Assembly: GCA_036803245.1 (NCBI GenBank)
Contig: DAIRUQ010000002.1
Location: 10,723-74,722, forward strand
DNA length: 64,000 bases
Direction: 5' to 3'
From: Chloroflexota bacterium
GTDB lineage: Bacteria > Chloroflexota > Anaerolineae > UBA1429
Below the pieces are notes generated by a model that did no database searches, was not told where the DNA came from, and saw nothing but the letters and a program-made list of their open reading frames with translations. A program made the translations under genes and the position numbers. Shown piece by piece: positions 1 through 16,419 of this stretch. Every line of letters begins with the position of its first letter. Within the stretch, counting starts at the first letter, position 1.

Positions 1-312
1 GAGCTGGCCGATCGGCAGCGACTCTACGCCCAGCCGAGTCATCCTTACACCCAGGCGCTGCTCTCGGCCATACCGATCGCTGACCCAGCCCTTGAGAGGG
101 CCCGTCGGCGCATCATCCTTCAGGGTGACGTGCCTAGCCCTTCCAGTCCGCCCTCAGGCTGTCGGTTCGTCACCCGCTGTCCGTTGGCCATGCCCCTGTG
201 CGCCGAGCAGGAGCCAGAGTGGCGCGAGATCGAACGAGGCCATTGGGTCGCCTGCCACCTCTCGTCGCCGCCAGATGATGCGGCTAAAGGCCACGAGGCA
301 GCCCAACGGTGA
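1..312 (+). CDS. Oligopeptide/dipeptide ABC transporter ATP-binding protein, C-terminal fragment; the 5' end lies outside the window
   Basis: Frame 1 reads [25 protein letters not shown]...[20 protein letters not shown], the conserved OppD/F C-terminal domain with its Cys-rich motif. TGA stop at 310-312. The listed ORF 130..312 is the tail of this frame. Confidence 0.8.
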
Positions 313-322
313 CGGAAGAGAG

Positions 323-688
323 CTAGCTCGCCGCGCGTCCCTTGGCGCGCCAGCGAAAGATCAGCCAGGTGATGGTTGCTGCGATCGCGAGCACGGTGGC
401 ACCCAGGCCGAGCAGGATACCCTCGCGGTATGGGGGAGGGTCACTGATGCTGATGCCCTCGCGCCGCACCAGCTCGGCGCGATCCAGGCTCGAACGCAGA
501 CTCTGACGAAAGTCTGCCGTGGGCGCCACGGGCCGCAACACGTCCTTGACGACGCCCTCGACTTCGTTGAGATTCTCCTGTGGCTCTGCTTCTGGAGACA
601 GGCGCACGCGCAACCCCGAGGCGCCATCACGCATCCGCGCCCAGACGTCGCCGACAGCCTGTCGCAGGTCGGTTCGGTGTAGCTTCAT
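323..688 (-). CDS. Putative anti-sigma factor; small protein with a single C-terminal transmembrane helix
   Basis: 121 aa. Its start codon overlaps the stop of the upstream ECF sigma gene (ATGA at 685-688). C-terminal hydrophobic helix ILLGLGATVLAIAATITWLIF. Position is typical of ECF sigma/anti-sigma translational coupling. Confidence 0.5.
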   Translation of the reverse strand: MKLHRTDLRQAVGDVWARMRDGASGLRVRLSPEAEPQENLNEVEGVVKDVLRPVAPTADFRQSLRSSLDRAELVRREGISISDPPPYREGILLGLGATVLAIAATITWLIFRWRAKGRAAS

Positions 689-1242
689 TCGATCTCTATC
701 CCTCGCTTACTCAGCTCGCGGCGCAAAGCGAGCAGCGTGCGATGATACAGCGACTTGATCGCCCCCTCGCTACGGCCCAGCACGGCTCCGATCTCGGCAT
801 TCGATAGCCCCTCCACATGCTTGAGCATCAGCAGTTCCTGGCGATCCTTATCGAGCGTTTGCACGGCCTCCCGCAGCTCCAGGTTCACATCCGAGCGCAC
901 GGTGACGGCCTCGGGGTTCTCGTCGCCCCTACTCTGAAGCACCAGGTTGTCCAGCGCCACAACGGGACGACGGCCTCGGTCGCGGTGATGGTTGGCCACC
1001 AGATTGTGCGCAATGCGATACAGCCAGGCCGAGATCGGCAACCCGCGATCCTCATACTCGCCAAAGTGGGCATACGCCCGGAAAAAGGTGCGCGAGGTCA
1101 GATCCTCGGCGTCACGTACATTGCCTACGCGGTGGTAGACATAGCTGTAGATACGATCCACATACTGCTCATACAGATCCCCAAAAGCCTGGGTCTGCTG
1201 TGCCGTATGCTGTGGATCCTCAGGCCGCCGATCGTTGGTCAT
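685..1242 (-). CDS. RNA polymerase sigma factor, ECF (sigma-70 family) subfamily
   Basis: 185 aa. Region 2 (YVDRIYSYVYHRVGNVRDAEDLTSRTFFRAY) and region 4 (LLMLKHVEGLSNAEIGAVLGRSEGAIKSLYHRTL) are characteristic of ECF sigma factors. Confidence 0.85.
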   Translation of the reverse strand: MTNDRRPEDPQHTAQQTQAFGDLYEQYVDRIYSYVYHRVGNVRDAEDLTSRTFFRAYAHFGEYEDRGLPISAWLYRIAHNLVANHHRDRGRRPVVALDNLVLQSRGDENPEAVTVRSDVNLELREAVQTLDKDRQELLMLKHVEGLSNAEIGAVLGRSEGAIKSLYHRTLLALRRELSKRGIEIE

Positions 1243-1435
1243 CCTATCCCCATGGCAATGCTACAAACACCGAGGCATCGTGAGCGTTGCACCCATCCTT
1301 CCCACGAGTCTAGCGCAGCCAACGCCGCTGTCAAAGCAGGCTCGCCTCGACCAGGGCCCACGTTGACCCACACCCAGCGCTATGGTACCATCGCCCTGTT
1401 GAGTGGACCATCAGTCAGGTAGGAGAATCGACACG

Positions 1436-2419
1436 ATGGCAGTACGCCGCAACGATCCCTGCCCATGCGGCAGCGGCAAAAAGTACAAGCAGTGCCATCT
1501 CAGGCAGGACCAGGTTGCCAGCTCGCGGGAACACGCGCTCACACCCGCTGAAGCGGCGGCCATGAACGCCCTCTTTGGCTTTGCCACCAGGCCGCGCTTT
1601 GCGCAGCAGCTGATTCAGGCCTTTCAACGTTACTGGGGCGGCAGCTACACGCCGACGAGCGCCTCAACTCTCGGTATGGAGCCATTCCGCCGTATGCTGG
1701 AATGGTTCGCCCTAGACTATGTGGTCGACGATGACGGGCATCGGGTGATCGACCTTCTCTTGGAGGAGGCTACCTCGGCGCCGCCGGCCGCGCGCGAGGT
1801 CCTGCAAGGATGGGCCAGCGCCACCTTGAGCGCCTTTCGGGTCCTCGACATGGAGGGACAGGACCAGGTTCGCCTGCTCGATCTACTGCGCGAGCAAGAG
1901 CTGCGAGCCGTCAACCGCTTCGTTGTCCTCAACGCCCACGAGGGCGACCTCTTGCTGGGTCGCTATGTGGAGTCCGATGGCGACGCGGCCCTCTCACCGA
2001 TGACCGCCATCTACCCGACAGCGCTTGAGGAGCCCTTGCTCTCCTATGTGCGGCGCGCCTATGCCCTCTACCAGGAGGAGCATTATGGCGCCACATGGGA
2101 TGCCTTTCTCAAGACCAACGGCACGATCTTTCAGGCGTTCTTGATCTCGGACAAGGCTGAGCCCTTCCGTCGGTTGCTCGGGCCTGGAACGCCCTACCTC
2201 GACCCGGCGCCCGTCCGCGATCTGCTCCGAGAACGCAGCCGCCAGGAGGCCCAGGAGCAGCGCGAACGCACGCCCGACCCCAGACGGCGCCCGCCCCCCG
2301 GTCAGCGGAGGGCCTCGGGGATCATCGTCCCCGGCGCCACCACACCGCAAACCGAGCCGGGCCCCAAAGGCGATGATGAGGAGCAGCCGCACATTCTGAT
2401 CCCAGGCCGCGACATCTAG
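1436..2419 (+). CDS. SEC-C metal-binding motif protein with a basic, Pro-rich, disordered C-terminal tail
   Basis: ATG at 1436 with AGGAG 10 nt upstream. N-terminal CPCGSGKKYKQCH SEC-C zinc motif. C-terminus is RERTPDPRRRPPPGQRR... and low complexity. Confidence 0.6.
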   Translation: MAVRRNDPCPCGSGKKYKQCHLRQDQVASSREHALTPAEAAAMNALFGFATRPRFAQQLIQAFQRYWGGSYTPTSASTLGMEPFRRMLEWFALDYVVDDDGHRVIDLLLEEATSAPPAAREVLQGWASATLSAFRVLDMEGQDQVRLLDLLREQELRAVNRFVVLNAHEGDLLLGRYVESDGDAALSPMTAIYPTALEEPLLSYVRRAYALYQEEHYGATWDAFLKTNGTIFQAFLISDKAEPFRRLLGPGTPYLDPAPVRDLLRERSRQEAQEQRERTPDPRRRPPPGQRRASGIIVPGATTPQTEPGPKGDDEEQPHILIPGRDI

Positions 2420-2454
2420 CCCGCCCAATCATCCGCGTAGGAGATCGCTTGCTC

Positions 2455-3174
2455 ATGCCGATACTAGCCCTGCTGCTCGACCTGGACGACACGCTGCTCA
2501 TCAACGACATGTCGGTGTTCATGGAGCCCTACTTTCGGGCGTTGACCCAGCGGATGAGCCCGCTCATCCCCATGGAGACCTTTGTGCCCGCGCTGCTCAA
2601 GGGCACCCATGCCATGCAGGCCAACGATGGCACGGACGGGACCAACGCCGAGGTGTTCGAGCAGGTCTTTTTCGGGCAAGTGGACGCCGACCCAGAAGCG
2701 ATTCTGCCGGCCTTTGAGGCGTTCTACCGCAACGAGTTTCAAACCTTGGCGACGCTCACCGAGCCGGACCCCGTGGCCAGCGACCTGGTCGCCGAGGCTC
2801 GGTCGCAGGGCCTCCAGGTAGCCATCACCACGCAACCGTTGTTCCCTCTGATCGCCATCGAGGCACGGCTGGCCTGGGCGGGGGTGGGCACCGACCGCTA
2901 TGCGTACGACATGGTCACCTCCTACGAGACCATGCGCGCCTGCAAACCCCATCCCGCCTTTTTCTCGCGGGTGCTGGCAGAGCTCGGCCGCGAGCCGCAC
3001 GAGTGCCTCATGGTCGGTGACAGCATCTCCAGCGATATGCCCGCTGCCAAGCTGGGCATCAAGACCTTCTGGATCGACCGAGGCCGCGGCGGCAGCTATG
3101 ACGGCGCCGATGGACGCGGCTCACTGAGCGACCTCTACCACCTGCTCAAGAGCGGAGCCATTCATGAACTCTAG
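2455..3174 (+). CDS. HAD-superfamily hydrolase
   Basis: LLLDLDDTLL is the DxDxT motif I of haloacid dehalogenase-like hydrolases; a C-terminal GDSxSD-type motif (MVGDSISSDM) is present. Overlaps galK by 11 nt. Confidence 0.75.
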   Translation: MPILALLLDLDDTLLINDMSVFMEPYFRALTQRMSPLIPMETFVPALLKGTHAMQANDGTDGTNAEVFEQVFFGQVDADPEAILPAFEAFYRNEFQTLATLTEPDPVASDLVAEARSQGLQVAITTQPLFPLIAIEARLAWAGVGTDRYAYDMVTSYETMRACKPHPAFFSRVLAELGREPHECLMVGDSISSDMPAAKLGIKTFWIDRGRGGSYDGADGRGSLSDLYHLLKSGAIHEL

Positions 3175-4324
3175 CAACCGGCTCGATAACCTTGTCCAGC
3201 GCGTTCGCCACGCTTTGGCGGAGGCGTTCGGCGTCCAGCCCAGCGCATTGGTGGCAGCCCCCGGCCGAGTGAACCTGATCGGCGAGCACACCGACTATAA
3301 CGACGGCTTTGTGCTACCCGCGGCCATCGACCGACACGTGGTGATGGCGGTGCACCCTCGGCAGGACGATCTGGTGCGGCTATACGCCTGCGACATGCAG
3401 GCCTCCAGCAGCTTTCGGCTGGGCGAGATCGTCAAGGATGACCAGCACACGTGGAGCAACTATCAGCGGGGCGTCGCGTGGGCGCTGCAGCAGGAGGGCT
3501 ATGACCTCATCGGCATGGACGTGGCTCTCAGCAGCGACGTGCCTATCGCGGCAGGATTGAGCTCATCGGCTGCCATCGAGTTGGCCACCGCCATGGCCTT
3601 TCAGACGGTCAGCGGTCTGGAGCTCGACGGCGTCGCGCGCGCCCAGCTCTGTCAAAAGGCCGAGAACGAGTTTGTGGGCATGCGTTGCGGCATCATGGAT
3701 CAGTACGTGATCTCCATGGGCCAGCGCGACCACGCCCTCCTGATCGACTGCCGCAGCCTGACCTACCAGGCGGTGCCAATCCCCGTCGGCTGCCAAGTTA
3801 TCATCTGCAACACCAACAAGCCCCGAGCGCTAGTAGGCTCGGCCTACAACCAGCGCCGGCTGGAGTGCGAAACCGGCGCTCGGCAGATGGGCGTCGTCGC
3901 CTTGCGCGACCTGACTCCCGACGATCTGGCTACGCACGCGCCCTCGCTCGATCCTATCGTTCTCAAGCGGTGCCGGCACGTTATCACGGAGAACCAGCGG
4001 GTCCTCGAGACGGTCGACGCCCTGCCGCAAGGGGACCTGGCTCGGGTCGGCGCCTTGATGAACGCCTCGCACGTCAGCCTGCGCGACGACTATGAGGTCA
4101 GTTGTGCCGAGCTGGACGCCATGGTCGAGGCGGCGTGGGATCAGCCCGGCGTGTGGGGAGCGCGCATGACGGGGGCCGGTTTCGGCGGCTGTACGGTGAA
4201 CCTGGTGGACGCCGACCATGCCGCGGCGTTTGCCCGCGAGATTGCGCCCCGTTACCAGAAACGCACCAACCTGGAACCCGACATCTATGTGTGCCGGGCC
4301 GAGCAGGGCGTGCGCGTCCTGTAG
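3164..4324 (+). CDS. galK: Galactokinase
   Basis: 386 aa. PGRVNLIGEHTDYNDGFVLP galactokinase signature plus the GHMP kinase glycine-rich motif (PIAAGLSSSAA). Confidence 0.9.
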   Translation: MNSSNRLDNLVQRVRHALAEAFGVQPSALVAAPGRVNLIGEHTDYNDGFVLPAAIDRHVVMAVHPRQDDLVRLYACDMQASSSFRLGEIVKDDQHTWSNYQRGVAWALQQEGYDLIGMDVALSSDVPIAAGLSSSAAIELATAMAFQTVSGLELDGVARAQLCQKAENEFVGMRCGIMDQYVISMGQRDHALLIDCRSLTYQAVPIPVGCQVIICNTNKPRALVGSAYNQRRLECETGARQMGVVALRDLTPDDLATHAPSLDPIVLKRCRHVITENQRVLETVDALPQGDLARVGALMNASHVSLRDDYEVSCAELDAMVEAAWDQPGVWGARMTGAGFGGCTVNLVDADHAAAFAREIAPRYQKRTNLEPDIYVCRAEQGVRVL

Positions 4325-4372
4325 CCACCCTATCGGCCGACAGCGCCAAGCAACAAACGGGACCAAAGCACC

Positions 4373-5500
4373 ATGCGAGCCTTCTGGGTCGTGCTCTTTT
4401 GGCTGTGCGCAGGCACCATCGCCTACGTCTACCTGGGCTATCCTGCCATCATGGCGCTCTGGGCCAAGCTGCGCCCGCGGCGCTACACCCAGGACGATCA
4501 TCGCCCCTCGCTGACCGTAATCATCGCAGCGCACAATGAGGCCGCCTGCATCACCCAAAAGCTCCAGAACACCCTGTCTTTGGCCTATCCTGCGGACAAG
4601 CTCCGCGTGATCGTCGTCGCCGACGGCTCGGACGACGGCACCGAGCAACTGGCCGAGCGCGGGCGCGATCCACGCGTCCAGGTCCTCTATCAGCCAGAAC
4701 GCCAGGGCAAAGCGGCCGCCCTCTCGCGGGCCGTCGCGGCTGCCTCTAGCGAGCTGCTGATATTCACCGACGCCAACGCCATGCTGGCTCCCGATGCGCT
4801 CAAGTCGTTGGTCCGCCCCTTGGCCGATCCGCACATCGCGGCCGTGGGCGGTGCCAAGCGCACACCGCAAGGCGGCGAGGGCCTCTATTGGCGCTACGAG
4901 AACGCCCTGAAACGCTGGGAAAGCGCCGTGGGCTCGGTGATGGGCGTGCCTGGCGAGCTGTGGGCGGTGCGCGCCAGCCTGTATCAGCCGCCTCCGTCGG
5001 ACACCATCCTCGATGACTGGACGGCCAGCATGGGACTGGTGGCGCAAGGCTGGCGCGTGGTACACGCTCCCGAGGCCATCGCGTACGAGGAGCCGCCCAC
5101 CAATCTGCGGGCGGCGTGGGAGCGCCGCGCTCGCAACGCAGCGGGGGGCTGGCAGGCTATCGTCCGCCTCGGCGGTCCCGCTCGCTATGCCGATCTGCTG
5201 GCGTGGTGGCAGTGCTTTTCGCATCGCATCCTGCGATGGATGGTAGTGCCGTGGCTTTGGTTGCCGTTCTTGGTGGCCAGCATCGCCCTGGCGCGGCATC
5301 CGCTCTACCTGGCGGCCGCTTTGGCCCAATGGATCCTGTACGACGTGGCGGTCATGGGCGCGATCCTGGCCGTCTATGACAAAACGGTGCCGTGGCTAAC
5401 GGCACCGTTCTACCTGCTCTTTGGGAATACCGCCGCCGCTGCGGGCGGATGGCGCTACCTCACAAGAAAGCAGACCGTGCTCTGGCGCAAGGCCCGCTAA
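4373..5500 (+). CDS. Family 2 glycosyltransferase, membrane-embedded, with N- and C-terminal transmembrane segments
   Basis: N-terminal TM helix, then SLTVIIAAHNEA...VIVVADGSDDGT (GT2 DXD region), then C-terminal hydrophobic helices. Confidence 0.8.
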   Translation: MRAFWVVLFWLCAGTIAYVYLGYPAIMALWAKLRPRRYTQDDHRPSLTVIIAAHNEAACITQKLQNTLSLAYPADKLRVIVVADGSDDGTEQLAERGRDPRVQVLYQPERQGKAAALSRAVAAASSELLIFTDANAMLAPDALKSLVRPLADPHIAAVGGAKRTPQGGEGLYWRYENALKRWESAVGSVMGVPGELWAVRASLYQPPPSDTILDDWTASMGLVAQGWRVVHAPEAIAYEEPPTNLRAAWERRARNAAGGWQAIVRLGGPARYADLLAWWQCFSHRILRWMVVPWLWLPFLVASIALARHPLYLAAALAQWILYDVAVMGAILAVYDKTVPWLTAPFYLLFGNTAAAAGGWRYLTRKQTVLWRKAR

Positions 5501-5507
5501 CGCCCGC

Positions 5508-6536
5508 CTACCCGCGCGAGAGCACCTCTCTACCCCCATACAGGCGATCATAGTAGCTGCGATAGTGCTCGCCCGACGTGATGGGACGCCACCACCATTC
5601 GTTATCGGCGTACCAGCGAACCGTCTTGGTAATGGCCTCGTCAAAGCTGTGACGCGACCGCCACCCCAACGCCTGCACCTTGGACACATCCAGCGCATAG
5701 CGACGGTCATGACCAGGTCGATCGGTGACCCACTGGAGCAGGCTCTCGGGCTTGTCCAGCAGCCGCAGGATCGCCCGCGCCATCACAATGTTCTGGGTAG
5801 AGATCCCCGTCCCCAGGTTATAGATCTCGCCGATCTCTCCCTTGATCAGCACGGTGTCGATCCCCTCGCAGTGATCAACCACGTACTGATAGTCGCGCAT
5901 CTGCATGCCGTCGCCATAGATGGGCAGCGGCTTGTCATCGATGGCGTTGGTGACAAACAGCGGCACCACCTTTTCGGGGTACTGGTACGGCCCGATGTTG
6001 TTAGAGCCGCGCGTGATGGTCACGGGCAGGCCAAAGCTGGCGTGGTAGGCCAACACCATCAGGTCGCCACCCGCCTTGCTGGCGGAATACGGGCTGCGCG
6101 CCTCCAGCGGATCAGTCTCCACCGAGGCGCCCTCCAGCACCTGGCCATAGACCTCATCGGTGCTCACCTGGTGGTACCGCTGCACGCCCAACTCCTTGGC
6201 GGCCTCCAGCAGCACCCAGGTGCCGCGCACGTCGGTCTCCACAAAGCTGCCAGCATCGGTCAACGATCGATCCACGTGCGTTTCGGCAGCAAAGTTCACC
6301 ACCGTGTCGATGGCATGCTCACGCATGGTCGCCCGCACCAGGTCCGCGTCGCAGATGTCGCCCCTGACAAAGGCATAGCGGGGATCGTCGGCCACGTCCT
6401 TGAGGTTGTCCAGATTGCCCGCATAGGTCAGCTTGTCATAGACCACTACCCGATCGTCGGGATGGGTGGAGAGCACATACCTCACAAAGTTGGAGCCGAT
6501 AAAACCCGCGCCCCCCGTCACCAGCAGCTTGCGCAT
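5508..6536 (-). CDS. rfbB: dTDP-glucose 4,6-dehydratase
   Basis: 342 aa. MRKLLVTGGAGFIGSNFV Rossmann motif, the YxxxK catalytic motif and overall RmlB-like features. Its start abuts the stop of the upstream radical SAM gene (cat-tca at 6534-6539). Confidence 0.9.
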   Translation of the reverse strand: MRKLLVTGGAGFIGSNFVRYVLSTHPDDRVVVYDKLTYAGNLDNLKDVADDPRYAFVRGDICDADLVRATMREHAIDTVVNFAAETHVDRSLTDAGSFVETDVRGTWVLLEAAKELGVQRYHQVSTDEVYGQVLEGASVETDPLEARSPYSASKAGGDLMVLAYHASFGLPVTITRGSNNIGPYQYPEKVVPLFVTNAIDDKPLPIYGDGMQMRDYQYVVDHCEGIDTVLIKGEIGEIYNLGTGISTQNIVMARAILRLLDKPESLLQWVTDRPGHDRRYALDVSKVQALGWRSRHSFDEAITKTVRWYADNEWWWRPITSGEHYRSYYDRLYGGREVLSRG

Positions 6537-7949
6537 TCAGTGCCCTCCTTTGGCCAGTGCCGTTCGCCGCGTCAGCAGCTCCCAGGCCTTTTCCACAGCT
6601 CGCTTGGGGCGAGCATAGCGACGCCAGAACCGCCCCACCGATCGTCTCGCCTGGTTCCAGGTCGTCCTTCGTTGCGAATCCTCCAACGCCTCGGCCAGCC
6701 ACGCATAGTCGATGCCCTTGATCTTGGCCTCGTCGGGATTGCGGCGATAGCTATCGTGGTCGCGAATCAGCGACAGACCGCGCTCCACGCAATAGTCATA
6801 CAGGTCGCTGCCGGGATGCGGCGTGTAAAAGGCCGGCGAGTAATAATCCGGATCGATGCGCTTGAGCATCGAGACCGTCTCCAGCACCTCGGCCTTGGTC
6901 TCCGTTGGCAGGCCGAGCATATAGTTGGCCCAGATGGCGATGCCATAGCGCTTGCAGATCCGTGCCGCCTCGAGGTTCTGGGCACGGGTGGTGCCCTTGC
7001 GAATGAACCGCAACACCCGATCGCTGCCGCTCTCAAAGCCGATAAAGTAGCCCCGCAGGCCCGTCTCGGCCATCAGCGCCACCATATCCTCGTTCTTGAC
7101 GATGATATCCGCTCGACTCTGACAAAAGAACGGCTGAGTGAACCCCGCGTCCGAGTAGGCTCGGCAGAAGGCCTCGACCCAGTCACGATCCTCGGTGAGG
7201 CAGTCGTCGTGGAACATCAGGCTGTTGAACTGGTAGGCATCGCGCAGCATCTCGAGCTCGGCCATGATGTTGGACACGCTGCGCCGACGCACCTTGCGCC
7301 CAAAGACCCACCGCTCGGCCGGCTGGCAGTAGCTGCAGTTGTAGATGCAGCCGCGCCCAGCGATGACGGTGACAAAGGGGCCGGGTAGCTCCTCAGCAAA
7401 GGGCGCCTCGGGTGAATCGGTGGCAAAGCCCTGCCGCCGCCACTCGTCCAGGAACAGGTCCCTATCCGCAAAAGGAAGCCCGTCCAGGTCAGGATGGCTC
7501 CCCGGCAGCAGGCGCGGCACCGCCTCGCCGCGTTCCAGCGCATCCAGGGCTTGCACAAAGGTCTCCTCAGCCTCCCCCAAGAAGACGTGATCGATCAGGG
7601 GGCTATCGACCATCTCTTGTGGCTGGATACTGACATGGGCGCCGCCGACCATGGTGACGATGCTTGGATCGATCTCGCGAACGATCTCCAGCGCCTGTAT
7701 GGCGGGGTTATAGTCCACGCTCATGATGGTGACGGCCACGACCTGCGGCTGACGCTGGATCAACTCCTCGCGCAGGTGCTGCCAGCCGCGCAGCGCCCGC
7801 AGGTCCAGCAGATCCACCTCGTGGCCCGCCCGCTTGGCGCACGCGCTCAGGATCGCCAGGCCGTGGCTGATCCAGCCCGAATCCATGCCCTGGCCGATGC
7901 TGGCCCAACCCTTGCCGATGATGCCCGGGTAGAGCAACGATACCCTCAT
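6537..7949 (-). CDS. B12-binding-domain radical SAM protein
   Basis: 470 aa. N-terminal cobalamin-binding-like Rossmann region (VVAVTIMSVDY...MVGGAHVS). CIYNCSYC matches the CxxxCxxC 4Fe-4S/SAM motif. AAGGAGCGGGG RBS upstream of the start. Confidence 0.8.
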   Translation of the reverse strand: MRVSLLYPGIIGKGWASIGQGMDSGWISHGLAILSACAKRAGHEVDLLDLRALRGWQHLREELIQRQPQVVAVTIMSVDYNPAIQALEIVREIDPSIVTMVGGAHVSIQPQEMVDSPLIDHVFLGEAEETFVQALDALERGEAVPRLLPGSHPDLDGLPFADRDLFLDEWRRQGFATDSPEAPFAEELPGPFVTVIAGRGCIYNCSYCQPAERWVFGRKVRRRSVSNIMAELEMLRDAYQFNSLMFHDDCLTEDRDWVEAFCRAYSDAGFTQPFFCQSRADIIVKNEDMVALMAETGLRGYFIGFESGSDRVLRFIRKGTTRAQNLEAARICKRYGIAIWANYMLGLPTETKAEVLETVSMLKRIDPDYYSPAFYTPHPGSDLYDYCVERGLSLIRDHDSYRRNPDEAKIKGIDYAWLAEALEDSQRRTTWNQARRSVGRFWRRYARPKRAVEKAWELLTRRTALAKGGH

Positions 7950-8013
7950 CCCCGCTCCTTGTGCTAGTCCTTGCCGCTACGAGAGAGACGGTCGGCCCGC
8001 ACCCTCGGTTCCT

Positions 8014-8670
8014 CTAGAGCTCCTCGATGGCGATGGCCCGCGCCCAGCCACTATCGATGACCGCACAGCGGTAAGGCAACGCCATAAAGTAAAAGACATC
8101 GCGCCGCAGCGCGTCGAGGTTTGCCAGGAACTCGACCAAGGTCCCACCTGCCCCCATGTAGATGCGATGCAACTCTCTCCCAGCCTCGATGTCGACGCCC
8201 AAGCGAAAGGCCTGATCGATGCCCACCATCTTGACGGCGTGGTCCACCAGCCAAGCGGCGGCCTCGGGCGTCCAGGACGGATGCGGCACAGCACCAGAGA
8301 GGCTATGCGGATCCGAGTTGCGGCAGATGAGGATATCATCCGTCTGCATCTTGGCGCCAATCAGACCGTCCAGCAGCTGGGGCGTCATCAGGGGCGCCTC
8401 TGTGGCGTCCACGATATCCAAGAGAACGGCGCGCCCCATGAAGGCCGAGAGGTCATAGGCGGTGACATCGCGCCCACCCTCGAAAAAGTGGGCATCCACC
8501 TCCACGTGGGTTCCCACGTGGGTGTGGGTACGAACGTGATGCATGGTCGCCCGATCGGCCAACAGATCCGGCTCGATCTCAAAGTAGCGATCCTTGCTGG
8601 CGCCGGGCACCACCTCAAAGGAGAGGTCCACCACCCGATAGCGTTCCAGGTCGATCTCAAATGTCGCCAT
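8014..8670 (-). CDS. Cyclase-family protein (arylformamidase/kynurenine formamidase-like)
   Basis: Start chosen at MATFEIDL with GGAGGG RBS. HVGTHVEVDAHF matches the HxGTHxD metal-binding motif of the putative cyclase family. It is the first gene of the minus-strand cyclase/rSAM/rfbB run. Confidence 0.7.
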   Translation of the reverse strand: MATFEIDLERYRVVDLSFEVVPGASKDRYFEIEPDLLADRATMHHVRTHTHVGTHVEVDAHFFEGGRDVTAYDLSAFMGRAVLLDIVDATEAPLMTPQLLDGLIGAKMQTDDILICRNSDPHSLSGAVPHPSWTPEAAAWLVDHAVKMVGIDQAFRLGVDIEAGRELHRIYMGAGGTLVEFLANLDALRRDVFYFMALPYRCAVIDSGWARAIAIEEL

Positions 8671-8833
8671 GCTACCCTCCATCCGGCTGCGTTGAGCGAT
8701 TATACCGCTCGCAAGCCCCAGAATACAACTCTGGCCCCAGAAATGCGCAGCCTCTGGAGGCCTTTTTGCAGCCAATGCCCTTGTGCTCTATTATGCAGCC
8801 GCCCAACCCCAGAATCGCAAGAGGAGCAGCAAC

Positions 8834-9199
8834 GTGTACCGTGTCAACGTCCGCCGCCATTTCGAGTCCGCGCATGCCCTGCGAGGTTACCAGGGCAAGT
8901 GTGAGAACGTGCATGGGCATCGCTATCAGGTGGTCGTGTGCCTCGAGGCGGAGCAGCTCAACGACCTGGGGCTGGCCATCGACTTTTGCGAGGTCAAGAG
9001 CGCCCTGGATGCTATCCTGGAGCGTTACGATCACCACCACCTCAACACGGTGCCTCCCTTTGACCAGATGAATCCCAGCGCCGAGAACATTGCCCGGGTG
9101 ATCTATGATGCCTTGGTAGACGAGCTAGAGGGAGTCTCTCTGCGCGAGGTCGAGGTCTGGGAGTCGCCCGACACCTGGGCCACCTATAGCCCACGCTAA
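8834..9199 (+). CDS. queD: 6-carboxy-5,6,7,8-tetrahydropterin synthase (6-pyruvoyl-tetrahydropterin synthase family)
   Basis: GTG start at 8834. YRVNVRRHFESAHALRGYQGKCENVHGHRY is a QueD/PTPS signature including the CxxxHGH zinc motif. Confidence 0.85.
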   Translation: MYRVNVRRHFESAHALRGYQGKCENVHGHRYQVVVCLEAEQLNDLGLAIDFCEVKSALDAILERYDHHHLNTVPPFDQMNPSAENIARVIYDALVDELEGVSLREVEVWESPDTWATYSPR

Positions 9200-9262
9200 C
9201 AGCGCCTTGCCACCGTCGCCGTACGCGGCGGCAACCACTACCTATGGAGGCAACCACGCCGG

Positions 9263-11698
<2,436 letters not shown>

Positions 11699-11766
11699 GG
11701 CGCGCTACCTTGGAGCGTGTTTGACGTATAGACGTTGACACGGAAACACGACAGGGGGTAGCACAG

Positions 11767-12309
11767 ATGCGGCACAAGGGATCGGTCTATGTTGGCACCA
11801 TGCTGGTGCTACTGGGCATCTTTTTCGCACTGGCCCAGAACGGCGGGGCCTTGGTCAGGCTCGTTACCCGGTTCGATTCGGGCTGGGGTGCCTTTTGGCC
11901 GCTGATCATCGTGCTGGCCGGCGTGGCGTTCCTGCTGCCCATCCTCGTTTGGTGGGAGCGACGCAAGGAGCTGGCGGGGATGGCCGTTCCGGGCATCATC
12001 CTGCTGGTCAACGGCCTGATGCTGCAGGTTCAGAACCTCACCGGTTGGTGGCACAGCTGGGCCTACACCTGGGCGCTAGAGCCCGTCGCGGTTGGCCTGG
12101 GCCTGTTGGCCATGTACTTTTTGGGACACCGCTCCGACGGCCTGCTCGTAGCTGCCAGCATCGTTGGCGGCTCGGGCCTGCTGTTCTTTATGATCTTTGC
12201 CTCGGCCTTTGGCGGGATCTTTCGGTGGGTGGGGCCCTTGGCCCTGATCGGCGTAGGCGCCCTGGTCATCCTTCGCGGCGTGGCACAACAGTCCGACAGG
12301 GACGACTAG
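11767..12309 (+). CDS. Integral membrane protein, function unknown
   Basis: 180 aa with at least 4 predicted hydrophobic helices. Its 3' end overlaps the mfd stop by 4 nt (convergent). Confidence 0.55.
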   Translation: MRHKGSVYVGTMLVLLGIFFALAQNGGALVRLVTRFDSGWGAFWPLIIVLAGVAFLLPILVWWERRKELAGMAVPGIILLVNGLMLQVQNLTGWWHSWAYTWALEPVAVGLGLLAMYFLGHRSDGLLVAASIVGGSGLLFFMIFASAFGGIFRWVGPLALIGVGALVILRGVAQQSDRDD

Positions 12310-15300
12310 CGGGCGGGTTGCGCCCGCCCCGCCGCAGAGTGCTCAAGAATACGAACCAGATTGCGCTGCCAGTCACGGATCATCGCCAGCCAGACGCGCC
12401 CACCCTGGGCACGCAGCGGCAGACCCAGGCCCTCGAGAGCCCTCACCTGGCCTGGAGTCAGCGGGCTCTCATAGGTCAGCGCGATCTGGTCGCGCTCCAC
12501 CCCCACCGCCTTGATGCCGCACGCTCGACACAGCGCCTTGACTTTGAGCATATAGACCAGGTGGCTGACTGGCTCTGGCAGCGCCCCGAATCGGTCCTCG
12601 AGCTCGCGTTCCAGCGCCTCGATATCGGCCAGATCTCGCAGCTCGGCCATGCGGCGGTATAGCCGCAGCCGTAGCGAGCTATCGGCAATATACCCCTCGG
12701 GCAGATAGCCAGACACGGGCAACTCCACGGCGGGACCCAAGTCCTGCAGGACGCCATCGACGGCCACCTTGGCACGAGCGCTCAGCGACGCCTCGCCGCC
12801 ATCGTCTCCCTGGCGCATGGCCCAAACCGCCTCGCGCAGCAGCCGTGCGAACAGATCGAACCCAACCGCGGCGATGTGGCCGTGCTGCTCGGCCCCGAGG
12901 ATGTCGCCGACGCCTCGGATCTCCATGTCTCGCATGGCCACCTGAAAGCCCGCGCCCAGGGCCGACGCCTCCTGGATGGTGCGCAACCGCGCCGAGGCCA
13001 CCTCCGACAGAGGACGGTGCGGCGTATGCAACAGGTAGGCATAGGCGCGCTCGACGCCACGTCCCACTCGCCCCCGCAGCTGATAGAGCTGCGAAAGGCC
13101 GAACCGCTCCGCCTGATCGATGATCATTGTGTTGACGTTGGGGATATCAAGGCCGCTCTCGATGATCGTGGTGCACAGGAGCACATCGGCCTCGCCCTGG
13201 GCAAAGGCCAACATCACCCGCGCCAGGTCATCCTCGGGCATCTGGCCATGGCCGATCAGAATCCTGGCCTCGGGCACCAGCTCGCGCAGCGCCTCCGCCA
13301 CACGGTAGATATCATGCACGCGGTTGTGCACATAGTAGACCTGCCCCTTGCGATCGAGCTCGCGGAGGATCGCCCGTTTCACCAGCCCGCGTTCCCAAGG
13401 CGCCACATAGGTCCGTATGGGCAGTCGATTCTCGGGTGGCGTGTCGATAATGCTCATATCACGAGCGCCACCCAGGGCGAGGTGGAGCGTGCGTGGGATG
13501 GGTGTGGCCGTCAGGGTGAGCACGTCCACCTCTCGGCGGAGCTCCTTGAGCTGCTCCTTGTGGCCCACGCCAAACCGCTGCTCCTCGTCGACGATCAGCA
13601 GGCCCAGATCGTCAAAGGCCACGTCCTTGGAGAGCAAACGATGGGTGCCAATGACCACATCCACCTTGCCTGCGGCCAGGTCATCGATCACCTCACGAGC
13701 CTCGGCCCTCGAGCGGAAACGTGACAACATCTCGACGGTCACGGGATAGGCTTGCAGGCGCCGCCTGAAGGTATAGTAGTGCTGCTGCGCCAGTACCGTG
13801 GTCGGCACCAAGACCGCTACCTGTTTGTTGTCCATCACCGCCTTGAAGGCGGCACGCAGGGCCACTTCGGTTTTGCCATAGCCCACATCGCCGCAGATCA
13901 GCCGATCCATGGGCTGCGGCCGCTCCATATCATCTTTTACCTCGGCCAGGGCCCGTTCCTGGTCAGGAGTCTCCTGATAAGGGAAGGAGGCCTCCAGCTC
14001 ATGCTGCCACACGGTGTCGCCGGAGAACGCATACCCCTGCGCGACCTCGCGCTCGGCATAGAGCTCCAACAGATCGATGGCCAAGGCCCGCACCGACCGA
14101 GCGGCCCGTTCCCGAGCGACACGCCAGTCCGCGCTGCCCAACCGGTGCGGCGCCGGCGGGGATCCGGTGCCACCCACATAGCGGCTCACGCGGTCAGTCT
14201 GCTGCACCGGAACATAGAGGCGATCGCCCTCGGCATACTCGAGCTCGAGGTATTCCCGTTCCGCGGCGCCTAGCGTCTTGCGCACCATCCCGCGATAGAC
14301 CCCGATCCCGTGCTCTAGGTGCACCACCAGGTCGCCGGGCGAAAGGTCGGCATAGGAGGTTTCGGGGGCGGTGCGGCGGGGTCGCGACGGCGCCTGGCGT
14401 CGCAGGCGAACCCAGCCAAACAGCTCGGCATCGGTGAGCAGGATCGTCCGTCCAGGTGTCAAGCTCCAGCCCTCGCCCGCGGCGTCATCGACGAGAGTCA
14501 GGGTGCCGGCAGCCGGCGGCTGCTCCAACGACTGCACTGGCGAGACGTAAAGGTCCAGCTCTTTGAGCATCTCGGAAACGCGGTTCGCTTGGCGGGTGAC
14601 CGCCACCACCCGTCTGCCATCCAGGCGCATCTCACCAAGAGCGGCCATGATATCGCGAAGATGGCCCCCTAGGCGCGGAGCCGGCTCAAAGACGCCCTCG
14701 GGCATCAAGGGGACACTCTCGCCTGTACCCAGCCCCAGCTCGACGGCTGTGGCATCCCGCAACGACCGCCGCAAGGCCTCCCAGGCGACATACGGCGTCG
14801 GTGCGTCCTGTGGCAGCTTGCCGGCCGCAACCTGTTCGGCCCGCAGCGCCTGAGCCTGCGTCTCTAGCCTCAAGACCGCATCGCCAATGGAGGCCTCGTC
14901 GGGCATCAGGACCAGAGAGCCATCAGGCAGATGGTCAAGGAGCGTCGCGGGGCGGGGATAGAGGTAGGCAAGGTGCCGCTCCAAGCCCTGCCAACCCCGC
15001 CCTTCTGCCAAGGCATCGGCCAGTTCCATCAAGTTCGCCTGCGTGTCCTCATCGCAGGTCGAGAGGTCGGCGCTGTGCAGCGCGTGAGCGGCGACAGCAC
15101 CATGCGCTGGTAGGGCCTCGGCGGCGGGGGCCACCGCTGCCTCTTGCAGCCGCTCCTCGGAGCGCTGGGTCGCCGGATCAAAAAGGCGCAGCGAATCGAT
15201 CTCCTCGCCGAAATAGTCGATCCGCAACGGTCGGGGCCAGTTGGGCGGATAGACATCCACCACGCTGCCCCGCTGGCAAAAGGTGCCCACCTCCTCCACC

Positions 15301-15824
15301 ACCGTCGCCGCTTCATATCCCAGGCCGACCAGCCGAACCAAAAGCTCATGCTGAGAAAAGAGCTCGCCGGCGCTCAGATGCAGGATCGCGCGGCGGAACA
15401 CTGCTGGCGGCACGGTGCGGGTCATGGCGGCCCAAGCCGAGGTGACCACCAAGGGCGGGTCGCCAGCGGATGGGGGGCGGGCTACGCTATCCAGCACCGC
15501 TGCCCTATCGACGATGGTGTCCCGTGCCCACATGTCGGGCTCATAGAAAAGGTGGTCCGGGGCAGGATGCAGCAAGATCGGCCGCTCGTCACCGATCCAG
15601 AGGCTCACCTCGTCTCGCAGTCGACGCGCTTCCTCGGGATTGGCAGCGACCAGCACGACCGGCGCGGTCCAATCCTGACACAAAGCTCCGACCAGCACCG
15701 GCCACGCTGCTCGGATCACCCCAACGGCGAGGGGTTCACCGCCTCGGCTACGGTCTCGCAGCCCATCCAGCAGCGGAGGGTATACCTCGCTGCGTCGCAG
15801 GGTCTGGACTAGCCCACCCAGCAT
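12306..15824 (-). CDS. mfd: Transcription-repair coupling factor
   Basis: 1172 aa. UvrB-homology N-terminus, RNAP-interacting domain, superfamily-2 helicase motifs (GDVGYGKTEVALRAAF, DEEQRFG) and a TRCF C-terminal domain. Confidence 0.95.
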   Translation of the reverse strand: MLGGLVQTLRRSEVYPPLLDGLRDRSRGGEPLAVGVIRAAWPVLVGALCQDWTAPVVLVAANPEEARRLRDEVSLWIGDERPILLHPAPDHLFYEPDMWARDTIVDRAAVLDSVARPPSAGDPPLVVTSAWAAMTRTVPPAVFRRAILHLSAGELFSQHELLVRLVGLGYEAATVVEEVGTFCQRGSVVDVYPPNWPRPLRIDYFGEEIDSLRLFDPATQRSEERLQEAAVAPAAEALPAHGAVAAHALHSADLSTCDEDTQANLMELADALAEGRGWQGLERHLAYLYPRPATLLDHLPDGSLVLMPDEASIGDAVLRLETQAQALRAEQVAAGKLPQDAPTPYVAWEALRRSLRDATAVELGLGTGESVPLMPEGVFEPAPRLGGHLRDIMAALGEMRLDGRRVVAVTRQANRVSEMLKELDLYVSPVQSLEQPPAAGTLTLVDDAAGEGWSLTPGRTILLTDAELFGWVRLRRQAPSRPRRTAPETSYADLSPGDLVVHLEHGIGVYRGMVRKTLGAAEREYLELEYAEGDRLYVPVQQTDRVSRYVGGTGSPPAPHRLGSADWRVARERAARSVRALAIDLLELYAEREVAQGYAFSGDTVWQHELEASFPYQETPDQERALAEVKDDMERPQPMDRLICGDVGYGKTEVALRAAFKAVMDNKQVAVLVPTTVLAQQHYYTFRRRLQAYPVTVEMLSRFRSRAEAREVIDDLAAGKVDVVIGTHRLLSKDVAFDDLGLLIVDEEQRFGVGHKEQLKELRREVDVLTLTATPIPRTLHLALGGARDMSIIDTPPENRLPIRTYVAPWERGLVKRAILRELDRKGQVYYVHNRVHDIYRVAEALRELVPEARILIGHGQMPEDDLARVMLAFAQGEADVLLCTTIIESGLDIPNVNTMIIDQAERFGLSQLYQLRGRVGRGVERAYAYLLHTPHRPLSEVASARLRTIQEASALGAGFQVAMRDMEIRGVGDILGAEQHGHIAAVGFDLFARLLREAVWAMRQGDDGGEASLSARAKVAVDGVLQDLGPAVELPVSGYLPEGYIADSSLRLRLYRRMAELRDLADIEALERELEDRFGALPEPVSHLVYMLKVKALCRACGIKAVGVERDQIALTYESPLTPGQVRALEGLGLPLRAQGGRVWLAMIRDWQRNLVRILEHSAAGRAQPAR

Positions 15825-15840
15825 TTCATCACCCCACCGA

Positions 15841-16419
15841 TCAGCTGCCCTGGTCAGTCGCGGCGTCCAGCCCGTTGTAGCGGTTCATCGCCTCGCCGAC
15901 GCCATCTTGGAGCACAGAGCGCACCATGGAAGGCACGTCATCTACGATCCGGTCAATCACCGACTGCTCGCTCCGGGTAAAGCGCGACAGGACATAGTCC
16001 ACGGCCTCATCAGAGGGGGGGCGCCCGATGCCGATTCGCAACCGCACAAAGTCAGCCTCGCCGAGGTGCCCCATAATCGAGGCAACGCCCCGGTGCCCGC
16101 CGCTGCTGCCGCCCTGGCGAAAGCGAACCCGGCCGACCGGCAAATCAAGGTCGTCGTGGATGACCAAGATCCGGTTGACAGGAACCTTGAACCAACGAGC
16201 CGCAGGACCCACGGCGTCCCCGCTATCGTTCATATAGGTCTGCGGCTTGACCAGAACCAGACGATGCGCGCCCATCGTAGCCTCGCGCACCAGCGCCCGG
16301 AACCGCCGCCGCTCACGATCGGCTCCGCACTCGTCGACCAAACGATCGACGCACCAGAACCCGACATTGTGGCGGGTCTCCTGGTAGCGTTCGCCCGGGT
16401 TGCCCAGGCCGACGATCAT
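15841..16419 (-). CDS. pth: Peptidyl-tRNA hydrolase
   Basis: MIVGLGNPGERYQETRHNVGF is the canonical Pth N-terminal signature. Start chosen at that Met; the upstream in-frame extension is unlikely. Confidence 0.9.
   Translation of the reverse strand: MIVGLGNPGERYQETRHNVGFWCVDRLVDECGADRERRRFRALVREATMGAHRLVLVKPQTYMNDSGDAVGPAARWFKVPVNRILVIHDDLDLPVGRVRFRQGGSSGGHRGVASIMGHLGEADFVRLRIGIGRPPSDEAVDYVLSRFTRSEQSVIDRIVDDVPSMVRSVLQDGVGEAMNRYNGLDAATDQGS

Follow-up and report, generated by a model that had tools for sequence, protein, structure and literature searches.

Three genes lie contiguously on the minus strand of the window (the whole 64-kb stretch of Chloroflexota DNA that was analysed): a cyclase-family gene (8014-8670; 218 aa, with its ATG start at 8670 and GGAGGG 6 nt 5' of the start), a gene for a B12-binding radical SAM enzyme, here called rSAM (6537-7949; 470 aa), and rfbB/rmlB, encoding dTDP-glucose 4,6-dehydratase (5508-6536; 342 aa). 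A plus-strand operon converges on them, with genes for a SEC-C motif protein (1403-2419; 338 aa), a HAD-family hydrolase (2449-3174; 241 aa), a galactokinase (galK, 3164-4324; 386 aa), the start of which is overlapped by the hydrolase gene for 11 nt, and a membrane-embedded GT2 glycosyltransferase (4373-5500; 375 aa), whose stop is 7 nt from that of rfbB. The original prediction had described this contiguous and convergent layout, and all six of its genes were recovered at the coordinates and strands it gave, by ORF map, translations and HMMs; the SEC-C gene heading the plus-strand operon is an addition to the genes it named. The window genes are considered real, not chance ORFs, because their HMM E-values range from 1e-19 to 1e-139 and they have hundreds of homologues.

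At the junction of rSAM and rfbB (6534-6553, minus strand) the sequence reads ...AAAGGAGGGCAC TGA ATG CGC..., and the TGA stop of rSAM (6537-6539) is immediately followed by the ATG of rfbB (6536-6534), just as had been predicted. GGAGG stands 7 nt 5' of this ATG, the spacing including the TGA stop. From this layout, rSAM and rfbB are probably translationally coupled.

The cyclase scores 70.7 bits with PF04199 (cut-off 23.1), 45.8 bits with the arylformamidase model TIGR03035 (cut-off 223) and only 32 bits in its best PDB match. Its metal motif had been predicted as HxGTHxD; the actual residues, HVGTHVEVDAH, correspond to HxGTHxE and are altered with respect to HxGTHxDxPxH. The gene is found upstream of rSAM only in the clade that shares 73% or more identity with the window rSAM (10 loci), and homologues of the cyclase with 54-55% identity occur in unrelated genomic contexts; on these grounds it was rejected as a general partner of rSAM. 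By these comparisons the cyclase gene joined the locus late and in this lineage alone; its product is putatively metal-hydrolase-like by family.

Similarly, the plus-strand block has a restricted distribution. The GT2 protein matches PF00535 with 89 bits and has hydrophobic N- and C-terminal segments visible in the translation, and it falls outside any named family because its best NCBIfam match, PgaC/IcaA, reaches only 102 bits against a cut-off of 422. It lies convergent after rfbB in loci L004, L008-L010, L014, L017, L018, L021 and L023. The galK product is identified as a galactokinase by TIGR00131 (405 bits, cut-off 226.65) and NF003705 (419.4 bits, cut-off 385), and its gene occurs near rSAM-rfbB in loci with 60-97% rSAM identity. 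The HAD hydrolase (PF00702, 67 bits) matches no specific NCBIfam equivalog, and the SEC-C protein (PF02810, 42.8 bits) accompanies HAD-galK in L004, L009, L010, L012, L014, L016, L017, L019, L021 and L023. The membrane GT2, galK and HAD genes, which the original prediction had described as converging on the rSAM operon, belong to a separate convergent operon limited to the window's clade. Polymerisation or export of the modified sugar by this GT2, as the original prediction proposed, is a putative role.

The rfbB product is a true RmlB by the curated threshold of TIGR01181 (462.3 bits, cut-off 365.1), is 45% identical to RfbB of E. coli K-12 and carries GGAGFIGS, STDE and YSASK motifs in its translation. 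The locus resembles rmlABCD in having this RmlB, and in relatives also a long-form RmlA, each of which scores higher than its curated cut-off; it differs in the rSAM gene placed between rmlA and rmlB in those relatives, and in the absence of rmlC and rmlD. Homology searches with RfbA, RfbC and RfbD found no rmlA, rmlC or rmlD in the 64-kb window, and across 86 related loci RfbC had no match at E<=0.01 and RfbD gave only partial cross-matches, all lying on rfbB itself. The full dTDP-L-rhamnose set (RmlC and RmlD with RmlA and RmlB) is thus present neither in the window nor in the 86 loci. Also, no 4-ketoreductase or aminotransferase able to finish a 4-keto sugar is encoded nearby.

Gene neighbourhoods were counted over informative loci in species-level genomes, all of which are Chloroflexota. 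Greedy ORF choice in the flanks (longest or GC3-scored) gave antisense shadow ORFs, such as 5421-7388 on the plus strand of the window, and neighbourhoods were therefore taken from tblastn maps. This analysis, which had been proposed together with the original prediction, found the adjacency of rSAM and rmlB conserved: rmlB is directly downstream of rSAM in 34 of 62 informative loci. Further, a long-form rmlA (TIGR01208, 465 bits, cut-off 320) immediately precedes rSAM in 33 of 68 loci, and at least one of the two genes is located within 8 kb of rSAM in 40 of 54 informative loci. The spacing is tight, with a median rSAM-to-rmlB gap in relatives of 28 nt (<=30 nt in 19 of 37 loci and exactly 0 in four) and a 4-nt overlap at six rmlA/rSAM junctions. 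In one locus (L001) the rmlA-rSAM-rmlB trio follows genes for Wzz, a BY-kinase-like ATPase and a GT1, and in four others (L002, L012, L019, L022) the order is rSAM, rmlB, a flippase-like gene and GT2. When the rSAM tree is rooted at its midpoint, the rmlA-rSAM-rmlB order is found on either side of the root, with adjacency kept down to 60% identity, and it therefore looks ancestral in its form with long rmlA, the window being one variant of a Chloroflexota sugar-nucleotide module. The predicted core is accordingly redrawn: the rSAM-rfbB link holds far beyond close relatives and gains rmlA upstream in many genomes, whereas the cyclase and the GT2/galK block fall outside it.

The same counts bear on an alternative in which rSAM modifies a lipid, cofactor or peptide. 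Its siting by rmlA and rmlB would then reflect inherited order or shared regulation, and these two genes would serve ordinary dTDP-rhamnose synthesis, the rmlC and rmlD genes being elsewhere. In about one quarter of the informative loci (14 of 54) no rmlA or rmlB is present at a distance of up to 8 kb, which was counted against sugar tailoring, as was the arrangement in Ardenticatenaceae and Caldilineae, where a 60-61% identical orthologue is surrounded by arrays of further rSAM genes (paralogues of B12-rSAM and SPASM-rSAM type), in one case close to mevalonate-diphosphate decarboxylase. In addition, lipids are the substrates of many B12-rSAM enzymes, judging by paper titles, and the absence of rmlC and rmlD covers the window and 86 loci. 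This alternative is quite unlikely in our judgement, given the overlapping or abutting junctions and the persistence of adjacency on both sides of the tree. Independent GT2 and SDR fusions and glycan-locus contexts in unrelated lineages, considered below, also agree with a sugar role, and none of the curated families that act on lipids, cofactors or peptides matches above its cut-off.

In rSAM, residues 27-133 form an N-terminal Rossmann-type B12-binding domain (PF02310, 71.3 bits, cut-off 32.1), the hallmark of class B radical SAM enzymes, and the PF04055 core (71.1 bits, cut-off 29.5) contains the CxxxCxxC motif of the radical SAM superfamily as C201/C205/C208, which is invariant in alignments of 20 close and 30 distant relatives. 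Ser77 (SxL-type) and Gly102-Gly103 are invariant among the close relatives, with a spacing typical of cobalamin-binding domains, and we infer that the enzyme uses cobalamin. AprD4 acts without cobalamin, so a B12-like domain can be cobalamin-free. Five further cysteines (C37, C250, C262, C276, C332) are invariant in close relatives only, and an auxiliary Fe-S cluster was dropped from consideration because none of them is invariant across the wider clade.

No NCBIfam model reaches its curated cut-off with rSAM. The top match is HpnJ (TIGR03471; 135.8 bits, cut-off 577.6, residues 76-419), followed by BchE (133.6, cut-off 481), PhpK (120.6, cut-off 600), BzaD (100, cut-off 450), HpnR (94, cut-off 650), the MCR glutamine methylase (88, cut-off 360) and AprD4 (NF033070; 61.9, cut-off 500). 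Tight clustering with a family of known non-sugar function, together with an unconserved adjacency to rfbB, had been named beforehand as evidence against the original prediction; with these best scores so far below cut-off, rSAM falls in no known non-sugar family, and the objection fails. The clade has no function assigned in NCBIfam, PDB structures or the literature searched, the literature search returned no characterised member, and no B12-rSAM enzyme acting on nucleotide sugars or polysaccharides appears in a 2026 review of the group. The view that no characterised system has this composition agrees with these searches.

These scores also raise the possibility that rSAM works on the same pathway and substrate without being a methylase. 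It would then rearrange the 6-deoxyhexose or eliminate from it by a radical route. One such route is ring contraction, which is shown for OxsB and proposed for HpnJ and would here give a branched furanose or a carbocycle; the other is an AprD4-like 1,2-diol dehydration leading to a further deoxygenated sugar. The two top-scoring families, HpnJ and BchE, are non-methylases, and HpnJ is proposed to remodel a hexosamine ring. No sequence marker tells methylases from non-methylases, and a sequence similarity network from the literature places HpnJ in one cluster with MoeK5, the methylase of moenomycin (PMC9204698). AprD4 (PDB 6fd2), the apramycin radical SAM 1,2-diol dehydratase that acts on a sugar ring, is the top PDB sequence match (1.9e-16), although the match is limited to the rSAM core at residues 195-390. 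The predicted two-domain fold resembles OxsB, TsrM, AprD4, MgmA, TokK and CysS; OxsB, TsrM and AprD4 match the model, which is of moderate confidence (pLDDT 65), equally well, AprD4 with a TM of about 0.6. On this predicted model the fold search confirms the enzyme class, not the split between methylases and non-methylases. Further, a rearrangement using the 4-keto group would account for an rmlB that has no accompanying ketoreductase. AprD4 and AprD3 form a dehydratase-reductase pair, which the fusion of two rSAM relatives to an SDR recalls. The strong B12-domain match of the N-terminus speaks against this non-methylase alternative, as do the scores far below cut-off with the HpnJ and AprD4 models and the fact that methylases make up the majority of characterised cobalamin rSAM enzymes (PMC12931638; PMC9204698). 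We regard it as unlikely overall.

In the hopanoid hpn locus an rSAM gene is accompanied by a GT2 (HpnI/HpnB) and an SDR (HpnA). Matches of HpnA, HpnB and HpnI type also occur at the rSAM loci, all of them weak. The likeness to HpnJ ends there: hopanoid genes are absent nearby, the window rSAM scores far below the HpnJ cut-off, and its partner SDR is a true RmlB.

More distant relatives point in the same direction as the Chloroflexota loci. Among 19 long rSAM relatives that were scanned (35-53% identical), 13 are fused to a GT2 and two to a sugar-type SDR. Unfused distant relatives have GT2, GT4, Wzy_C and Bac_transf genes as neighbours or stand next to flaG-fliD-fliS, and a further locus, apparently archaeal, contains PMT, GT2 and a weak AglB_L1 match. 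Judged by gene content, these are apparently loci for polysaccharide synthesis, flagellin glycosylation and, in the last case, archaeal glycosylation. The link between rSAM and rfbB is reinforced because rmlA stands upstream in many genomes and relatives are fused to GT2 or SDR domains. As for the substrate, the glycosyltransferase fusions fit a glycan that is already assembled no less well than they fit a nucleotide sugar.

We give an even chance to the reading that rSAM tailors a 6-deoxyhexose for an envelope glycan, with C-methylation as the leading reaction. RmlA, presumably encoded elsewhere in the window's genome, would supply dTDP-glucose, which RmlB would convert to dTDP-4-keto-6-deoxy-D-glucose. 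The cobalamin-type rSAM would then act on the 6-deoxyhexose while it is still a nucleotide sugar or once it has just been transferred to a carrier. By a class B mechanism, a 5'-deoxyadenosyl radical would take a hydrogen from the sugar, for example at C3 or C5 beside the 4-keto group, and the substrate radical would accept a methyl group from methylcobalamin to give a C-methyl-branched deoxysugar. A membrane glycosyltransferase, which in the window may be the convergent GT2 and in sister lineages a co-directional pair of flippase-like protein and GT2, would incorporate the product into a glycan of the envelope or an extracellular one. The substrate, the methyl transfer and the final acceptor in this scheme are all inferred. 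The original prediction of a C-methylated or otherwise radically modified deoxysugar is thus upheld in its sugar link, through the conserved rSAM-rfbB pair, rmlA and the GT2/SDR fusions, with C-methylation as one of several candidate chemistries.

The nearest functional parallels, GenK and GenD1 (gentamicin) and MoeK5 (moenomycin), share with the window rSAM a B12 domain and an rSAM core and act on carbohydrate carbons beyond the reach of ordinary SAM methyltransferases, a likeness drawn by description, with no NCBIfam model for them matching. GenD1 methylates C-4'' and GenK C-6' of gentamicin intermediates (PMC4340712), and MoeK5 is among the C-methylases that add a single methyl group (PMC9204698). 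Their substrates are assembled pseudo-oligosaccharides or lipid-linked intermediates of actinomycete antibiotics, whereas the window rSAM represents a conserved Chloroflexota gene between rmlA and rmlB, without an antibiotic cluster. To our knowledge, radical C-H chemistry on sugars has so far come mainly from antibiotic pathways (GenK, GenD1, MoeK5, AprD4, DesII).

A broader proposal is put forward tentatively, as possible though doubtful. The clade would be a sugar-modifying rSAM class of bacteria and archaea, found in polysaccharide, flagellin-glycan and N-glycan loci and often fused to glycosyltransferases, which in Chloroflexota would turn dTDP-4-keto-6-deoxyglucose into an undescribed C-alkylated or ring-rearranged deoxysugar replacing envelope rhamnose. 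If true, sugar radical C-H chemistry would extend to the primary glycans on the cell surface throughout a phylum and, via the fused relatives, to flagellin and archaeal glycans. Chloroflexota abound in anaerobic digesters, sediments and hot springs, and very little is known of their envelope chemistry. As a short three-gene system with commercially accessible substrates, rmlA-rSAM-rmlB is open to test, and it may uncover a rare sugar or a biomarker not described before, or a reaction new to cobalamin rSAM enzymes; an ordinary C-methylase would be a modest gain, with a known mechanism extended to another class of substrate.

With regard to regulation, no Rfam element matched at E<=0.1 in positions 1-16000 of the window, including the cyclase-queD intergenic region, and riboswitch control was rejected on this basis. 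A promoter and terminator scan gave sites no more numerous than in shuffled sequence and was uninformative for the minus strand. The divergent intergenic region between the cyclase gene and queD on the ORF map (8671-8782, assigned to no strand) is the presumed site of the promoter for the minus-strand operon. A SAM riboswitch present at two related loci (L027 and L028) is part of the next operon downstream.

On the minus strand of the window, in a region of about 64% G+C, three closely spaced genes encode a cyclase-family protein (8014–8670; 218 aa, with an ATG start at 8670 and GGAGGG ahead of it), a 470-aa B12-binding radical SAM protein, here rSAM (6537–7949), and the dTDP-glucose 4,6-dehydratase RfbB, or RmlB (5508–6536). 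rSAM combines an N-terminal B12-binding domain (PF02310, 71 bits) with a radical SAM core (PF04055, 71 bits) carrying the motif C201-x3-C205-x2-C208. The rmlB translation scores 462 bits against TIGR01181 (cut-off 365), shares 45% identity with E. coli RfbB and contains all of GGAGFIGS, STDE and YSASK; its ATG abuts the rSAM stop codon TGA, with GGAGG 7 nt upstream. Convergent with rmlB, the stop codons being 7 nt apart, is a compact plus-strand operon of a SEC-C protein (1403–2419), a HAD hydrolase (2449–3174), a galactokinase scoring above curated cut-offs (3164–4324) and a GT2 with hydrophobic ends (4373–5500), and queD, lon and then mfd lie upstream of the cyclase gene in opposite orientation. 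Reading frames and profile scores confirmed the description given in the original prediction, apart from one slip: the cyclase motif given as HxGTHxD reads HVGTHVEVDAH. Two further long frames, 5421–7388 (+, 655 aa, antisense to rmlB and rSAM) and 3830–5329 (−, 499 aa, antisense to galK and the GT2 gene), have no family matches and were rejected as shadow ORFs of a GC-rich genome.

The pairing of rSAM with rmlB is real, and together they form a conserved core, ancestrally with rmlA. Among more than 1600 database relatives of rSAM, the best 120 are 67–100% identical to the window protein, and all of these that bear an organism name are Chloroflexota/Anaerolineae metagenome bins. In a genome set limited to one per species, 233 genomes hold a relative, and the best 80 of these (60–97% rSAM identity) are Chloroflexota only (Anaerolineae, Ardenticatenaceae, Caldilineae and one bin labelled Dehalococcoidia); the closest locus (L021, 97%) matches the window in gene order throughout. 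When loci were mapped by tblastn with the window proteins and the nucleotidyltransferase of one related locus, L001, rmlB was directly downstream of rSAM in 34 of the 62 with enough flank, a long-form nucleotidyltransferase gene (rmlA) was directly upstream in 33 of 68, and one or both were within 8 kb in 40 of 54. The L001 enzyme is a long-form glucose-1-phosphate thymidylyltransferase (TIGR01208, 465 bits vs. 320; about 36% identity to E. coli RfbA), and the trio there follows Wzz, BY-kinase-like ATPase and GT1 genes, which is a typical exopolysaccharide setting. Junctions are tight, with a median rSAM/rmlB gap of 28 nt (exact abutment in four, overlap in some) and a 4-nt rmlA/rSAM overlap in six. 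Because the rmlA-rSAM-rmlB state occurs on either side of the midpoint root of a neighbour-joining tree of rSAM proteins, this order would most simply be ancestral. rmlA is absent from the window. With E. coli proteins as queries, no RmlC homologue was found in the window or any of 86 loci, and RfbD (RmlD) gave only partial cross-matches on rmlB itself.

The other members of the proposed operon are lineage-specific neighbours. The cyclase gene is upstream of rSAM in only 10 loci, all of them from the clade with 73% or more identity to the window, in which rmlA no longer holds the upstream position. Its product is a remote family member (best PDB match 32 bits; arylformamidase model 46 vs. 223), and homologues at 54–55% identity, one in a Planctomycetota bin, have unrelated surroundings; we treat it as a probable late addition. 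In two loci (L096, 3826–5675; L097, 4051–5675) the gene for a 55%-identical homologue overlaps a URO-D-family gene's end, in a gene block that also encodes FemAB, penicillin-binding and GT2 proteins, a different partnership for this subfamily. The galK/HAD/SEC-C block with its membrane glycosyltransferase is near rSAM-rmlB only in the window's larger clade. Further, the glycosyltransferase varies: the window and its nearest relatives carry the convergent 375-aa membrane GT2, and in L002, L012, L019 and L022 rmlB is followed in the same orientation by a pair of genes, one for a flippase-like membrane protein (TIGR00374) and one for a 328-aa GT2.

A search without a word index returned 2274 cluster representatives at E<1e-30, and many relatives at 35–53% identity are far longer than 470 aa. 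GT2 domains occur in 13 of 19 long relatives scanned, frequently alongside TPR repeats or a GT1-like domain and once with a conventional methyltransferase domain; two carry a sugar-type NAD epimerase/dehydratase domain, one carries DUF362 and one is a double rSAM. One rSAM-SDR fusion lies between flaG-fliD-fliS and a 1402-aa protein that combines rSAM with several GT2 domains, a layout as would be expected of a flagellin glycosylation island. Another relative, in an apparently archaeal locus (EF-1 alpha, S10), is accompanied by PMT, GT2, a weak AglB_L1 match and a second rSAM gene, and others neighbour an SDR, GT4, Wzy_C, GT9 and seven GT2 genes, or a Bac_transf initiating transferase together with GT2 genes. 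Being independent of one another, these fusions and gene contexts link the rSAM clade to glycan synthesis, and the glycosyltransferase fusions may fit action on a nucleotide sugar or on a sugar after transfer alike. Two GT2-rSAM fusions contain inteins between B12 domain and rSAM core (P0196, residues 208–477; P0201, residues 683–947).

No NCBIfam model reaches its cut-off for rSAM (HpnJ, 136 bits vs. 578; BchE, 134 vs. 481; PhpK, 121 vs. 600), and with the adjacency kept as widely as it is, the predicted sugar link at the centre of the original prediction has withstood a test that might have overturned it. That the substrate is a sugar or glycan of some kind is likely, and the best-supported reading is that rSAM would tailor the 6-deoxyhexose that RmlA and RmlB supply, on its way into an envelope or extracellular glycan. 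A substrate other than a sugar is improbable; it would suit the roughly one quarter of informative loci in which rmlA and rmlB are both missing nearby, and the Ardenticatenaceae/Caldilineae orthologues that sit within arrays of other rSAM genes.

Within the sugar or glycan reading, the likeliest single chemistry is class B C-methylation, with about an even chance overall of being correct, because methylases are common in the class, the B12 domain is strong and a 4-keto group would be radical-stabilising. In gentamicin, sugar carbons are C-methylated by the cobalamin rSAM enzymes GenD1 and GenK (PMC4340712). A non-methylating rearrangement or dehydration ranks after it and is possible though rather doubtful: rSAM resembles HpnJ, BchE and AprD4, and a ketoreductase is lacking. 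HpnJ and BchE are non-methylases, HpnJ being proposed to contract a glucosamine ring, and HpnJ co-clusters with MoeK5 and Fom3 in a sequence network (PMC9204698). By sequence, the closest matches among solved structures are AprD4 (within the rSAM core only), MgmA, which is the glutamine methylase of methyl-coenzyme M reductase, OxsB, TsrM and TokK. The AlphaFold model, whose quality is moderate (pLDDT 65), matched the same set at TM 0.55–0.63; this predicted fold confirms the two-domain cobalamin-rSAM architecture, though not the reaction. No member with a nucleotide-sugar or polysaccharide substrate is mentioned in a 2026 review of B12-rSAM enzymes or came up in full-text literature searches. 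rSAM is a putative carbohydrate-acting cobalamin-type radical SAM enzyme, a variant of an already known kind in an unusual, conserved gene position; it merits experiment but is no new category of enzyme.

Chloroflexota orthologues also have variant neighbours. The Ardenticatenaceae/Caldilineae arrays hold a 60–61% orthologue among two to five tandem B12-rSAM paralogues (23–30% identical) and SPASM-type rSAM genes (L071, 7–5846; L073, 6303–13274; L077, 1575–12276; L058; L079); a DUF433/DUF5615 (PIN-like) pair breaks that of L077, and a mevalonate-diphosphate decarboxylase gene is near that of L073. A histidine-phosphatase-family gene (PF00300, 222 bits) takes rmlB's downstream place in L037 (9407–10033), L038, L039, L040, L045 and L046, overlapping the rSAM stop by 4 nt in several (e.g. 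L037, L045 and L046). Directly downstream of rmlA-rSAM-rmlB, L028 (10611–10752, 79 bits) and L027 (10620–10812, 73.5 bits) carry a SAM riboswitch (RF00162), leading an operon that we take by eye to encode an MtnA-like isomerase, a MetE-like protein, a PfkB kinase and an archaeal-type SAM synthetase; if so, methionine salvage and SAM regeneration would adjoin a SAM-consuming enzyme. Upstream of rmlA, six loci (L061, L070, L078, L081, L083 and L085; e.g. L061 2228–6657) share a conserved block that by eye presumably resembles a bacterial microcompartment locus (RnfC/PduS-like Fe-S protein, BMC shell and EutN-like proteins, class II aldolase). In addition, the queD-lon-mfd order next to rSAM is the same in the window (8783–15824) and L002 (1277–7700) despite an rSAM identity of only 68%, which shows gene order to be conserved over a long range in this region of Anaerolineae chromosomes.
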